From a virus (lineage: Duplodnaviria; Caudoviricetes), in IMG/VR virus record IMGVR_UViG_3300028832_000146, positions 440-64,439 of that record: 64,000 nt of DNA. The stretch is one strand, 5' to 3'. The notes under the pieces were generated by a model. It ran no database searches. It saw nothing but the letters and a program-made list of their open reading frames with translations, and was not told the DNA's origin. The position numbers and the translations under genes are program-made. Below, piece by piece: positions 3,026-45,674 of the stretch. Position 1 is the stretch's first letter; each line of letters starts with the position of its first letter.

Positions 3026-3952
3026 ATGAAAAATTTGCTTTATGACTTTTTGCAATATTCCAAAGATATCAATTACAGATCAAGCGACACATTGGTTCAT
3101 TATAAATACGATATGTTAAAATTTATTGAATTCATGAAATACAAAAAATGAAAATTCGAAATAAACGTTGAAGATGTAAAATTCGCAGATTGTATTGAAC
3201 GGCTTGAAACATACAAAGAAAACAGAAAAGTTTCAAGAAGCACACTTTCAACATTATCAAATTCTTTACGCCAATTTTTCAAATACAGTGCAATGATCTG
3301 AAAAAAATTACAATTTAACGTTGAACAATTACCAATTATTAAAAAAGAACGCAAACCATACGATATGATGAAAAAAGAAGAATATGAAATATTGGTTCAA
3401 GCACCATTAATTTATGAAGAATCACCAATACTTGCAGAAAGGAATCAATTATTAATCGAAATACCATACAGAACATGATTACGCCGTGCAGAAATATTAC
3501 GTTGCAAATTCGAACATTTCCACAATGAAAACCGCCAATTCCAGATATTATGAAAAGGCGGTTATCATGATCGAGTATTTTTTACCGAAGATTTAAGAAA
3601 TAAAGTTTTGCATTTTGAAGAAAGTATAAAAGAATTCACAAAAAAAAGACCATTCAAAATGGATTTTTTATTTGTTTGATTAGATAATAAAAATCGATGA
3701 AAGCCACTTGCACCAAAATATATTAATATTTTATTCCGTAAATATTCCGAACATCTTATAAATGAATGAAAGATTACAAGAGTATTACACCCGCACATGG
3801 AACGCCACGCATTCGCCACAAATTGCGTTTATGCTTGATTAAGCCAGCAAGCAACAACACGTTTAATGCGTCACCGTGATCCAAAAACCACTGAATGATA
3901 TTATCACATGAATGATACATGGTTAAAATCACAATTTGATAAAATATCATAA
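3026..3952 (+). CDS. Tyrosine recombinase (XerC/D-like, 308 aa)
   Basis: TGLRRAE, GKGG, HPHMERHAFAT, MRHRDPKTTEGYY catalytic motifs. Confidence 0.9.
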
Positions 3953-7949: not shown

Positions 7950-8366
7950 ATGGAAACACCAAAAAATCAAGGGGGGGGGGAGACTTTACAAACCTTTACT
8001 GTAAATCCAGCATTTCTTCTACAAGATATGCCAATTGATTTCTTTGACTTTCAATTCATCATGAATGCAGATTGAACATTAAAGGAAACAAAATTTAAAG
8101 ATCAGATTTTAGAACCAGCAATTTGAAGTTCATTATTCTTAATTAAAGAGAAATACTTCAAAAAGGTAAAACAACATAAAATTGACAAAAAGAAGATTGA
8201 AAGCCACAAACAAGAAAAAGAAAACATGCTGAACGCATGGAAAATTCAAAAAGAACATTATCAGTGACACATCAGATACCAAGAAAAAGCATTATGAGAA
8301 AAGAACAGATTATTAAAAGCAATATGATTAATTGCACACAATGTAGAAAAAGTAAATCAGAATTAA
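7950..8366 (+). CDS. Conserved hypothetical protein with a G10 tract at codons 8-11
   Basis: In frame through G7971-7980; homolog at 39149 also has G10. Confidence 0.8.
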
Positions 8367-10633: not shown

Positions 10634-10843
10634 ATGCAACAAAGTTTATTATCAGATTGAAAAAAGCAATTCTTTTATGAAAGCTGGTTGAATAACAAAA
10701 CCGCAAGAGACCAGAAAGAAAAAGAAGTAAAAGCAAGATGATATAAAGAAATCCACAAATGACAATATAATTGTCAGGGGGGGGACAATTTATTTCTTAA
10801 CTTGGAGATAGCATGCCAAAAAAAGTATACCGCAAGGATTTAA
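10634..10843 (+). CDS. Hypothetical protein with a G9 tract, unit A only
   Basis: ORF crosses G10777-10785 and overlaps the next gene by 31 nt. Confidence 0.5.
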
Positions 10844-11287: not shown

Positions 11288-11749
11288 ATGCCAAAGAAAG
11301 CCAAAAAACCAAAGATTGATAAAAAAAAGCTGAATGATGAAAATGTAGAAATTGCAAAATTAATTGCAAAAGCAAGAGATCATTATACATGCCAGCATTG
11401 TTGAAAAACAATCAAAGAAACAGCAATACATGCAAGCCACATAATTAATGAAGCAAGAGATCACAGACTTGCAAGTGATCCATACAACATAAAAGCATTA
11501 TGTTATAATTGCCACATAAATCGGCGACATAAAAACCCAATAGAAGCAAGTCAATGGTTTAACGAAAAGCGACCGTGAAGATATGAAGAATTGCAAGCCA
11601 AACATATCGAATACATGTGAAAGTGAAGCATTGATGTAATCCGAATGATTGAAAGAAATCAAGAGTTAAGGAAAACATGTGCAGAATTGAAAATCGATAT
11701 TTCAAAGTTCAAGTATGGTGCAAAAATTTATAATGATAAAGAGTGATAA
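11288..11749 (+). CDS. ninG: NinG/Rap-like HNH nuclease
   Basis: CQHCG..HASHII..NIKALCYNCHINWWHKNP (CGG CGA = WW). Confidence 0.75.
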
Positions 11750-39148: not shown

Positions 39149-39565
39149 ATGGAAACACCAAAAAATCAAGGGGGGGGGGACGAATTAAACGAATTCACAG
39201 TAAACCCAACGTTTTTATTACAAGACATGCCAGTGGATTTCTTCGATTTCCAATTCATAATGAATGCAGATTGAACATTGAAGGAAACAAGGTTTAATGA
39301 CCAAGTTCTTGATCCAGCAATTTGAAGCAGTTTATTCATTATTAAAGAGAAATATTTCAAGAAAATTAAACAGCATAAAATGGATAAAAAGAAACTTGAA
39401 AGCCACAAAGAAGAAAAACAAAGAATGATTGACGCATGGAAACAAAAAGAGCACAATTATCAAGGACATATAAGGTATACAGAAAAAGCATGCGGTGAGC
39501 AAAAACGTTTATTATTAGCAATTGGAATGATTGCACACAATACAAAGAAAAGCCAAGAAATTTAA
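39149..39565 (+). CDS. Conserved hypothetical protein with G10 tract
   Basis: G39170-39179 in frame; homolog of 7950. Confidence 0.8.
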
Positions 39566-42063: not shown

Positions 42064-42429
42064 ATGCCAAAAAAAGCATATCCAAAAGATTTAACAATAA
42101 AAAGCAACAATCCGCAATGGAGAAAATTTGTTGATTATTACAATCAACGGCGGGAAGAAAAGTTTAAAGAAAAATGATATTTTAAATACACAATGCGTTT
42201 TGATGATGTGCATATTATATCAAAGAAAATGTGATTCATAAAACGATTGTGTGACAATGATAAAATCACACGAACGGAAGTTTGGAGTTTATGAAAAACA
42301 ATGCCAACATATTGATATACAACATCACCATATACAACATGCAAAAGTATAAAGTTGGAAAACACAATCATAATGATTTTATCAATACAAGAAAATCCAA
42401 TCAGTTTTATTTTATGAATTTTGGAATAA
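42064..42429 (+). CDS. Highly conserved hypothetical protein
   Basis: Homolog of 10813. Confidence 0.8.
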
Positions 42430-42803
42430 TGGAATACTTAGTAAACTTGTTAAATGAATATGAAATACAATCCAATCTTATTTTAAAAATATGGAAATAT
42501 GAAGGGACGTTGTATTATTCAAATTATAAAGATGAAAACGTTTTTGATAATGTTTATTTTGAAGTTATATCAAAGAATTATTGATTTATTAATTGGCTTG
42601 TAAAATGCGACAAAGTAAATCTCGATAAATTAAAAGAAGATACGCAATTTACCATGATTATGCATGTTGCTTGATTTGGTTATACGTGGGATACAGCGAA
42701 GGAATGAGAAGATATTTTAAAGGAAATATGAGCAAATGCGTTGGTTATGAAATTATCAATTCAAAATAAACCAATAGAATATTTACTTTCTATATTAAAA
42801 TAA
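42429..42803 (+). CDS. Hypothetical protein, unit B only
   Basis: TAATG-coupled ORF, 124 aa. Confidence 0.6.
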
Positions 42804-42961
42804 TGCAAAGATCAGAAATTATTGAAGATTACGTAAACGAAAAAATGGACAAATTGGAAGGTAACAAAAAAGAAAAATTTGAAGGTTGCCGGTGATGTTT
42901 GGAGTTCCTATTGGATATTTTAGCAATATGTGCGGTATTAAAACTTCTTTTCTTCATGTAA
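42803..42961 (+). CDS. Small protein with C-terminal TM segment, unit B only
   Basis: TAATG-coupled ORF, 52 aa. Confidence 0.55.
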
Positions 42962-43128
42962 AAGAAAGCCAAAAATTTTAACATGAAATAATGAATATGT
43001 TAAAAAATTTAACATGAAAAGAAAAAATAAGATTTTGAAAACAGCAAGGATTTAATTATATTATTTGTATGCATAAGTAATTAAATTCTTGTAGAACCTT
43101 TGATTTATATTCAAAGGTGTTTTCATTT

Positions 43129-43578
43129 ATGCTAAAAAAAGCCAAAAAACCAAAAATTGATAAAAAAAAATTGAATGATGAAAATGTGGAAATTGCCAAA
43201 TTAATTGCAAAGGTAAGGGATAAATACACATGCCAGCATTGTGGAAAAACAGCCAAAGAAACAGCAATTCATGCAAGCCACATAATAAATGAAGCAAGAG
43301 ATCATAGACTTGCCAGCGATCCGGAAAACATAAAAGCGTTATGTTATAATTGCCACATAAATTGGCGACATAAAAGCCCGATTGAAGCAAGCGAATGGTT
43401 TAATAAAAAGCGACCATGAAGATATGATAAATTGCAAGAAAAACACGTTGAATATATGGGTAAATGAAGCATTGACGTAATACGAATAATTGAAAGGAAT
43501 AAATGGTTAAGGGAAATTTGCGAAGAAATGAAAATTGATATTTCAAAATTCAAGTATGGTGCAAAAATTGATTTATAA
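43129..43578 (+). CDS. ninG: NinG/Rap-like HNH nuclease
   Basis: Homolog of 11288; TGG CGA = WW. Confidence 0.75.
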
Positions 43579-43594
43579 TTAAACAAGGGAAACA

Positions 43595-44212
43595 ATGGAA
43601 ATAATAAATAAAAAAATCGATGAATTAATACCGTATGAATACAACAATAAAAAACATGATGAAACGCAAGTAAACAGAATCGCAAATTCAATAAAGGAAT
43701 TTGGATTTACGCAACCGGTGGTAATTGATAAAAATAACGTGGTAATTATTGGACACGGAAGATTGGAAGCGAGCAAAAAATTATGATTAAAAGAAATTCC
43801 ATGTGTAAAAATGGAAGATTTAACGGAAATACAAGTAAAGAAATTAAGAATATTGGATAATAAATTGAATGAATCAGAATGGGATTTGGAAAACTTGCAA
43901 TACGATTTGGCGACAATTCCGGATTTCAATATTGGGGAATTGGAAATAAATGTTGATGATCTATTCGATGATTTGTTTCCAGTTGATCCGGACGAATTGG
44001 ACGATAACTTTTCATTGCCAAGCGGAGAAAAAGCACCATTTGGACAAATAACGTTTACGCTTGCCGACGAACAGAAAAAAGAAATTGAAGAAGCAATAAA
44101 GAAGGTAAAGGAAACAGATTTGTATAAAAGCCAAATGAATTATGGAAACGAAAACAGCAATTGAAACGCTTTATATTGTATTGTGAGCCAATGGATAGCG
44201 TTAAATCAATAA
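43595..44212 (+). CDS. ParB-like nuclease (ParBc) domain protein, unit B only
   Basis: IPYEYNNKKH..SIKEFGFTQPVVID..IIGHGRLEA..LRILDNKLNE. Confidence 0.85.
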
Positions 44213-44857
44213 TTGTAAAAGTGATTCCAAGTAAAATTGCAAATGAATTCGTAAAAAAGCACCATTATTCATGAAAGGTTGTGCCAAATTCACAGTTGCA
44301 TTTCGGGTGCTTTTTAAACTGAATCTTGGGGGGGGGTTCTCTCTTATTGACCAAGCACAGATAAAAGCAAATTAATTGGGTTGGTGGAGTGAACCGAACG
44401 AAACGAATTTATCGAATTAAACCGCATGGCTTTCAGTGATGTGTTGCCAAGAAATAGCGAATCAAGGTGCATTGCAATAACAATAAGAATGATAAAAAAG
44501 CAAGCACCACAAATAAAACGAATAATAAGCTTTGCGGACGGTTGCCAATGTGGAGATTGAACAATATATCGTGCAAGTGGGTTTGAATTAACACAAATAA
44601 ACCAAAACAGATGATTAAGGGTTGATGAAAATGGTAAAGTTTACAGCCAAGTAACATTCTCCGCACATAAACCAAACGAAATGGATAAATTCAGAAAAAT
44701 GGAAAAAATTGACGGCTTCATGTTGAGATATATAAAATTATTAAAACCAAACTTAAAAAGAAATTATGAAATAATCCCATATTCAGAAATAGACAATTAT
44801 GGTGCGTGAATGTATAAAGGGGAAAAGGTAACAAGAAAAGAAAGACACACAAAATAA
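44191..44857 (+). pseudogene. mom: Mom-like adenine-modification enzyme, frameshifted at a G9 tract (G8 restores a 221-aa ORF)
   Basis: FVKKHHYSGKVV..HFGCF / GVLSYG..IELNRMAFSD..PRNSESR..KWIISFADG.QCGDGTIYRASGF; ATG-to-TAA span is 667 nt (3n+1). Confidence 0.8.
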
Positions 44858-44873
44858 AAAAAGTGTGTGTTAT

Positions 44874-44947
44874 GCGTGCGTGGTGTAATGGTTGCATGTT
44901 CACATTCCAGTGGAAGGAGAAAGTTCAAATCTTATCCGCACGCTCCA
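44874..44947 (+). tRNA. Atypical tRNA-Gly(TCC)-like gene directly after the Mom-like gene
   Basis: Acceptor GCGTGCG/CGCACGC, U73, encoded CCA, TTCAAAT T-loop, TCC at 44906-8; imperfect anticodon and T stems. Confidence 0.75.
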
Positions 44948-44973
44948 TTTAATAATTTAATTCAAAAAGAAAC

Positions 44974-45195
44974 ATGGACAAACAGCAAATGGAAAAAGAA
45001 ATTAAAAGGTTGAATAAATTGGTGTGCCAACAAGAAATTGAATATCACCAATTATTGAGAACCGCAAAAAGAGTTGAGAAAAATTACGAAAATTTGGAAT
45101 GGATCGTAAAGGTTGCAATAAACATGGCGTATGATAAAGACGAAAACGAAGCAATCGATTTCTTAACCAAACAATTTACAAGACATAAAATTTAA
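44974..45195 (+). CDS. Coiled-coil hypothetical protein, unit B only
   Basis: 73-aa ORF between the tRNA and TerS. Confidence 0.65.
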   Translation: MDKQQMEKEIKRLNKLVCQQEIEYHQLLRTAKRVEKNYENLEWIVKVAINMAYDKDENEAIDFLTKQFTRHKI

Positions 45196-45215
45196 TTGGT
45201 AACGCATAAATAAAA

Positions 45216-45674
45216 ATGCCAAAGCAAAAGCGAGATTGGAACAAGGTAAAATTGGAGTTTATTCAATCAGATTTCGACGAAGTGAAACAATTTATGCAAG
45301 ATAAATACAATATTTATAATTGAGAAATTGCAAAAAATACAAAGGGGCGGACAAAAGACAAAGTGGAACGGAAGAAAAAGATATTGGAAAAGGCGTTGGA
45401 GAAAAGTGCGAAAAAACAAGCGGATTCGTTGGAATTAACAATTGAATTCTTGAAGAAAGCAAAAAAGAACGCATTAATTAAAATTGCAAAACAAATAACA
45501 ACAAATGATTTAATGAGCGTAAAGGATTTGGTAAGGTGATTGTGAACAATAAAAACGGAATTGTGAGAACCAACGAAAATTACGAAAAATGAAAACATGA
45601 ATAAAGAAGAAAATGTGAGTTTAACGGACGAAGAATTGGAAGCTTTAAAAATTATATTAAAGAAAAACAAATAA
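45216..45674 (+). CDS. terS: Terminase small subunit (putative)
   Basis: Abuts TerL; homolog of 11751. Confidence 0.65.

Follow-up and report, generated by a model that had tools for sequence, protein, structure and literature searches.

Whether a gene interrupted by a single additional nucleotide in a homopolymer represents a sequencing error, a dying gene or a switch is a question raised by a Mom-like gene of an uncultured phage, which is split into two reading frames by a run of nine G residues. The gene lies in IMG/VR virus record IMGVR_UViG_3300028832_000146, a 64,439-nt contig whose positions 440 to 64,439 were analyzed here (64,000 nt, hereafter the window; coordinates refer to it, and all features described lie on the plus strand). 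The initial annotation, made from the letters of the sequence, had proposed phase-variable genome modification. On the basis of the present results, neither an error nor a dead gene is the most likely explanation of the tract, but a mutational switch that can be reversed.

A poly-G tract interrupts the Mom gene

The G9 tract is located at positions 44328–44336, where it codes for Leu46 (TTG)-Gly47-Gly48-Val49 of Mom. When TGA is read as glycine (genetic code 25), the upstream frame begins at ATG 44191, passes through the tract and ends at a TAA (44362–44364) situated 26 nt past the run, close to the ~25 nt given in the initial annotation. In the N-terminal part of the G9 allele (44191–44364), the first 48 residues (44191–44334) belong to the family and contain the HHY motif (Mu H58/Y59); nine out-of-frame codons and the stop codon come after them. 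The C-terminal part (44336–44857) is read in another frame from the last G of the run (VLSYGPSTDK...) to a TAA at 44855–44857, and its 173 amino acids contain the equivalents of Mu R111 (ELNRM), S124 (PRNSES), D149 (SFAD) and Y159. With one G less, the 48 and 173 residues are joined into a protein of 221 aa; the frame is kept by G8 and would also be kept by G5 or G11. Such an allele exists in a close relative (L001), whose G8 gene encodes an intact 221-aa Mom that is identical to the N-terminal part of the window (48 aa) and 99.4% identical to the C-terminal part (one V-to-I change).

The two halves matched the Pfam Mom family (PF25680; cut-off 27.1 bits) at profile positions 2–42 (E 5e-9, 36.5 bits) and 44–200 (E 4e-31, 108.6 bits), and apart from the frame break at about profile position 43 no other lesion was found in Mom. 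The earlier proposal that one extra G switches off a gene with two intact halves was confirmed in each of these respects. Runs of at least eight G were strongly over-represented in the window (four observed versus 0.02 expected under a first-order Markov model), and the distribution of G-run lengths was bimodal, with seven G5, two G6, no G7 and four G8–G10 runs. No C run of seven or more was present in the window.

Genetic code and organization of the phage

The window is AT-rich (G+C content 31%), all of its long open reading frames (ORFs) are located on the plus strand, and 81% of it is covered by intact ORFs of at least 100 aa. The long ORFs are open only if TGA is a sense codon, and those of up to 833 aa contain 45–47 in-frame TGAs. 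TGA accounted for 54.6% of the codons at glycine positions in 52 long ORFs, and the TGA at position 44320 of the window is replaced by GGA in one strain (L003). Taken together, these observations fit code 25 (TGA = Gly, Gracilibacteria/SR1). Such a reading of TGA points to a probable host among the Gracilibacteria or Absconditabacteria.

The contig consists of two phage-like units in tandem, each complete but diverged from the other, unit A (1–30945) and unit B (30946–64000), which share 71–88% nucleotide identity. No terminal overlap of the contig was found and it is not circular; relatives of the units are single units of 32–37 kb. The two units may be truly linked in this way, or two co-occurring phages may have been fused during assembly. 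The phage is a siphovirus-like rumen phage of ~32 kb, in which DGR-like repeats (VR/TR-type) are also present. Strong avoidance of palindromes, with one difference between the units, was also observed: the counts in units A and B were 0/0 for CTAG, 0/0 for GGCC, 0/2 for GTAC, 1/1 for GCGC and 1/7 for CGCG, and CCGG occurred once in unit A versus 36 times in unit B.

Identity of the Mom-like protein

The designation of the gene as Mom-like was upheld by Pfam, PHROG, a sequence match in PDB and the predicted fold, all of which agreed. In addition to the Pfam matches given above, the C-terminal part matched phrog_1384 ('Mom-like DNA modification protein'; E 1e-30). Alignment to Mu Mom (PDB 8bv8) by phmmer gave an E-value of 1e-11 for the C-terminal part and a weak match for the N-terminal part; identity to Mu Mom was only ~28%. 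A fold model of the G8 allele from L001 had a pLDDT of 87.4 and a pTM of 0.82, and its best Foldseek matches were the two chains 8bv8_B and 8bv8_A (E 2e-18 and 4e-17; TM 0.71–0.77), followed at E 4e-7 by the next GNAT protein.

Residues whose roles in Mu Mom have been described (Silva et al. 2026, PMC13219725) were examined in the phmmer alignment to 8bv8. The equivalents of Mu R111, S124, D149, H58, Y59 and Y159 are conserved and are invariant in an alignment of 22 sequences; the conserved stretches include ELNR-M, PRNSE-S, SFA-D, IY-RAS and HH-Y. The H58/Y59 equivalents are located upstream of the run and those of R111, S124, D149 and Y159 downstream. Neither fragment could act alone. The essential R151 of Mu falls opposite a Q, across a gap (ADE-RCG in Mu versus ADGCQCG here). 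The GCQCG motif did not vary among the 79 sequences that could be read (the window and 78 relatives), a sample that is biased in that FADGCQCG served as one search pattern. Given the Q aligned with the essential R151, the chemistry of this subfamily may differ from that of Mu.

Tract length varies among near-identical phages

Five distinct strains with ~98.8% nucleotide identity carry three different tract lengths. G9 (OFF) was found in the window, as well as in two sequencing runs of its source sample (X1 and X2), and in a MAG contig from another project (L166). G8 (ON), the commonest allele, was found in L001, in L002 (the same as L086) and in runs X3 and X5 from other samples; it should be noted that X3 and X5 may overlap with IMG samples, the SNP pattern of X5 being that of L001/L002. 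G7 (OFF) was found in L003. In a 2.5-kb alignment of the five strains, the only internal indels were located in the G run and in an intergenic A run, the former being the only coding site of length difference. The two G9 strains are separated by 30 SNPs, and neither is closer to the other than it is to the G8 strains. The occurrence of G9 in two non-sister strains thus indicates that tract length has changed repeatedly.

The substitutions among these strains also bear on the state of the gene. Variants in Mom comprised 14 synonymous and one nonsynonymous change, a conservative V to I, and those in the adjacent ParB-like gene 17 synonymous and one nonsynonymous. The ratio in Mom deviates strongly from the 19% synonymous fraction expected under neutrality (p about 1e-9), and the private changes of the OFF lineages were all synonymous. 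Both halves of Mom are under purifying selection, and the 14:1 ratio together with the exclusively synonymous private changes indicates that the OFF states are young.

Reproducibility of the tract in independent assemblies

All alleles considered here were derived from short-read metagenome assemblies, in which long G runs are error-prone, so it is necessary to ask whether G9 could be a homopolymer sequencing or assembly error that masks a true G8 and an intact gene. Illumina chemistry and PCR-based libraries are error-prone at long G runs, and in three of four runs Logan contigs start or stop next to or inside another tract, the G10 at 39170. The initial annotation had named a consensus error as the main alternative and held that it would be revealed by accurate data giving G8. 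The opposite was observed: Logan's separate assemblies of two runs of the source sample (X1 and X2; bovine gut) both gave G9 and not G8, at depths of 24 and 8.8. The corresponding contigs matched positions 42309–45500 and 42893–45500 with no differences and no gaps. No contig with a minor allele was seen in X1 or X2, an absence that is no evidence either way since contigs drop rare variants. Other homopolymers of the window do not disrupt genes, as all 37 in-gene A/T runs of at least 7 nt (36 A runs and one T run) were frame-intact and both G10 runs were also in frame. The agreement across assemblers and data sets speaks against error.

A separate length difference was seen in an A9 run (43162–43170) within an HNH/NinG-like gene, for which one low-depth contig of run X3 had A8.

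The tract in diverged Mom genes

Runs at the same codons (TTG/CTG-GGG-GGG-GTA) were also identified in more distant Mom genes that use the standard code, namely G8 in L005, G9 (OFF) in L006 and G8 in L045/L049, which are 68, 58 and 49% identical, respectively. Most Mom genes of the subfamily have LHGV or LEGA at the position of the tract, and some encode LGGV without a run. In a phylogenetic tree obtained by a quick IQ-TREE maximum likelihood search, at least three gains or losses of the run were needed. GGG makes up 4.3% of the glycine codons in this phage. Frame breaks between the two halves were present in four of nine distinct tract-bearing Mom genes versus none of 66–159 run-free genes (Fisher p 1e-4 to 4e-6).

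Comparison of these sequences shows that the tract has been kept, or has arisen again, at the same codons of diverged Mom genes. Conservation of the G run in homologs, a check put forward in the initial annotation, is borne out at both distances: lengths of 7, 8 and 9 occur among the ~98.8%-identical phages, and G8 or G9 in Mom genes of 49–68% identity. The alternative raised there, that homologs lack the run and the gene is simply a recent pseudogene, is contradicted by the presence of the run in homologs and by the predominance of synonymous changes.

Other poly-G sites in the phage

Two of the remaining long runs are located within copies of one gene. In unit B, a G10 tract (39170–39179) forms codons 8–10 of a 138-aa ORF (39149–39565) and is in frame, and a homologous 138-aa ORF in unit A (7950–8366) contains an in-frame G10 at 7971–7980. 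The run is kept at G10 in both units though they are only ~71% identical in this region. No family match in PHROG or Pfam was found for the 138-aa ORF or its neighbours. Among its relatives, G10 was present in L081, L083 and L084, A+G9 in frame in the phage of L166, and G14 out of frame (OFF) in L082; no run was present in L085. In a complete 37-kb relative, the only two runs of seven or more G were a G10 in the 138-aa ORF and a G7 in Mom.

An additional, intergenic G8 run (10777–10784) is flanked by the inverted repeat ATTGTC/GACAAT and lies 28 nt upstream of an ATG at 10813. The homologous intergenic site in the phage of L166 contains G9 (L201, about 3589–3597) and precedes a different gene. 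A promoter or leader that is portable and contains a run of variable length may be located at this site.

Mom is part of an accessory cassette

Directly upstream of Mom, a gene encoding a ParB_N-domain protein of 205 aa (43595–44212; code 25) overlaps the start of Mom by 22 nt, and in 67 of 80 related loci Mom is likewise preceded directly by such a gene. On the other side, 16 nt past the Mom stop, lies a degenerate tRNA-like element (44874–44943) with a UCC (Gly) anticodon loop. Against the Rfam tRNA family it scored 23.5 bits, short of the 29 bits required for gathering; ARAGORN detected no tRNA in the window, and Rfam gave nothing at the gathering threshold. Directly after Mom, a tRNA-Gly was detected by ARAGORN in two other loci (L016 and L071) and a tRNA-like element by Rfam in a third (L011). 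The position of a tRNA-Gly-like element next to Mom deserves attention because Mom uses Gly-tRNA(Gly).

The ParB-like gene, Mom, the tRNA-like element and a 73-aa ORF form a cassette (43572–45213), an insert of ~1.6 kb that is present in unit B only and absent from the corresponding place in unit A (11731–11748). A contig of run X5 joins 43569 to 45213 with 19 other letters between them and represents a relative without the cassette. The boundaries of this cassette-free contig are the same as those seen between units A and B, and the ParB-Mom-tRNA-like module thus has the behaviour of an accessory insert that is mobile. A scan for promoters and terminators around the cassette gave results no better than shuffled sequences. 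In another phage contig, a sequence ~1.3 kb downstream of a Mom gene matched the type-P1 twister ribozyme below threshold (L008:4766–4817; 45.5 bits, gathering score 67.2, E 7e-7).

A probable switch and its alternatives

From the comparative data, we consider it likely (a probability of roughly 70%) that the G run is a hypermutable contingency locus, that is, a simple-sequence repeat in a predicted anti-restriction gene of the Mom family, whose slippage would switch Mom ON and OFF. Slipped-strand mispairing during replication would add or remove one G. With G8 the full 221-aa enzyme would be produced (ON); with G7 or G9, a stump of ~57 aa without the catalytic Arg, Ser and Asp would be made (OFF). 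Judged by its homology to Mu Mom, the full-length enzyme would transfer glycine from Gly-tRNA(Gly) onto N6 of adenine in phage DNA (PMC13219725) and in this way blunt host restriction. Switching would then lead to mixed progeny, in which modified genomes would survive classical restriction and unmodified ones would be spared the cost or toxicity of the enzyme as well as modification-dependent defence. Mis-expression of mom is toxic in the case of Mu, where several levels of repression act on the gene (PMC3378877). We infer that switching may take place within one population and that its benefit would be bet-hedging against restriction.

The alternative that fares best, though it appears unlikely, is that the run is hypermutable without being adaptive, a hotspot that knocks out an accessory gene, with the OFF alleles representing load, either deleterious or neutral, or a first step of loss. 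The cassette is indeed dispensable, being missing from unit A and from the relative in X5, and four of the nine tract-bearing genes are OFF. However, a purely harmful run should have been erased by synonymous change, whereas it is found at the same codons in genes down to 49% identity and persists in spite of the low share of GGG among glycine codons, when sister genes show that LGGV can be encoded without it. Moreover, no further lesions are found in the OFF alleles, their private changes are all synonymous, and the clade retains two further poly-G sites.

A second alternative, which we regard as improbable, is that G9 is not truly OFF and that transcriptional slippage or a +1 ribosomal shift on G-GGG-GGG provides some full-length Mom at a deliberately low level. 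Homopolymers of ~9 nt are known sites of RNA polymerase slippage, and re-pairing of tRNA-Gly is possible on GGG_G. Low expression would suit an enzyme whose Mu counterpart kills when mis-expressed and is kept under strong repression (PMC3378877; Kahmann 1985, cited in PMC13219725). On the other hand, G8 is the commonest allele, and the sequence after the run contains neither a stimulatory element nor a slow codon. A programmed frameshift ranks low because both G7 and G9 alleles exist and would need shifts in opposite directions.

Finally, the homopolymer error discussed above is very improbable, since G9 was reproduced by the Logan assemblies in a contig whose other homopolymers are clean, and it is further opposed by the G9 of an independent strain from another project and by the restriction of coding length differences among the five strains to this one tract.

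A broader extension of the contingency-locus reading can be offered tentatively, and we would place it somewhat below even odds. The LGGV poly-G run may be a selected, recurrent switch of one Mom subfamily in phages whose hosts use different genetic codes, and it may belong to a portable three-part module (the ParB_N-domain partner, the GCQCG-variant Mom and a private tRNA-Gly-like RNA) that would make tRNA-dependent hypermodification both self-contained and stochastically switchable, in a clade with at least three poly-G contingency loci. If true, phages of candidate-phyla-radiation bacteria would thereby gain their first described example of multi-locus phase variation.

Comparison with known systems

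Switching of DNA modification by simple-sequence repeats is well known from bacterial phasevarions, such as the repeat-switched Type III mod and Type I hsd methyltransferases of Haemophilus, Neisseria and Helicobacter. In these systems, as proposed here, a frameshift within the repeat turns a DNA-modifying enzyme ON or OFF. In contrast, phasevarions are based on chromosomal genes that rewire the expression of the host, whereas the gene described here is a predicted phage counter-defence gene with no regulon implied.

The closest relative in terms of the enzyme is Mu Mom (PDB 8bv8; Silva et al. 2026, PMC13219725; Karambelkar et al. 2020, PMC7261163), which belongs to the same Pfam family and has the GNAT fold with a Mom-specific insertion. 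In both phages, Mom is an accessory, late or packaging-proximal gene presumably directed against restriction, and a costly enzyme appears to be tightly limited. The two differ in residues, as R151 of Mu aligns across a gap with Q in GCQCG and the Mu dimer residue W48 corresponds to Ile, and in gene context, as Mu lacks the ParB_N-domain partner found here and the tRNA-Gly-like element that often accompanies it. They also differ in control: Mu relies on Dam/OxyR, C, Fis and Com, whereas a mutational poly-G frameshift would take this role in the present phage, in which the activity of Mom is predicted.

With respect to the switch, close counterparts are the contingency loci T2 agt and T4 rIIA (Gomez, Barrick and Waters, bioRxiv 10.1101/2025.10.21.683753), in which a homopolymer within the gene causes a reversible frameshift by polymerase slippage. 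T2 agt is also a DNA-hypermodification gene, and the mixed progeny that arise from such loci serve as a hedge against host defence. These loci have been demonstrated experimentally in coliphages, whereas comparative evidence alone supports the G7–9 tract of Mom, in a rumen phage that is uncultured and uses code 25. In Campylobacter phages of the genus Fletchervirus, polyG tracts of G7–G11 occur on the coding strand at several loci per phage, and their lengths vary between and within stocks, with genes ON or OFF (Sorensen et al. 2021, Cell Rep 35:109214); these tracts are reported to lie in genes for receptor-binding proteins, so that host recognition is altered and not DNA modification. Another parallel is Bordetella phage BPP-1 (Liu et al. 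2004), a temperate DGR phage with a poly-G in a DNA-modification gene, which recalls the DGR-like repeats of the present phage. The enzyme of BPP-1 is reported to be a methyltransferase and not Mom, and its tract to have been noted but not studied.

Thus, homopolymer switches are already known as a mechanism in phages (Fletchervirus, T2 agt, T4 rIIA and BPP-1), and a literature search for phase-variable Mom yielded no such report. Mom-type hypermodification is a broad anti-restriction device whose chemistry was solved only recently. Compared with the layered regulation of Mu, which reflects the harm done by mis-expression, a slippery G run that would switch heritably and stochastically is a much simpler natural solution, and the tract is documented among phages in the wild as well as in diverged Mom genes, where it occupies the same codons. 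It offers a concrete, testable case of bet-hedging in which restriction evasion is set against the cost of DNA modification. For annotation, frameshifted Mom genes of this kind should not be named pseudogenes or 'corrected' as errors. More generally, our analysis extends the range of phage contingency loci from coliphages and Campylobacter phages to uncultured phages with an alternative genetic code.
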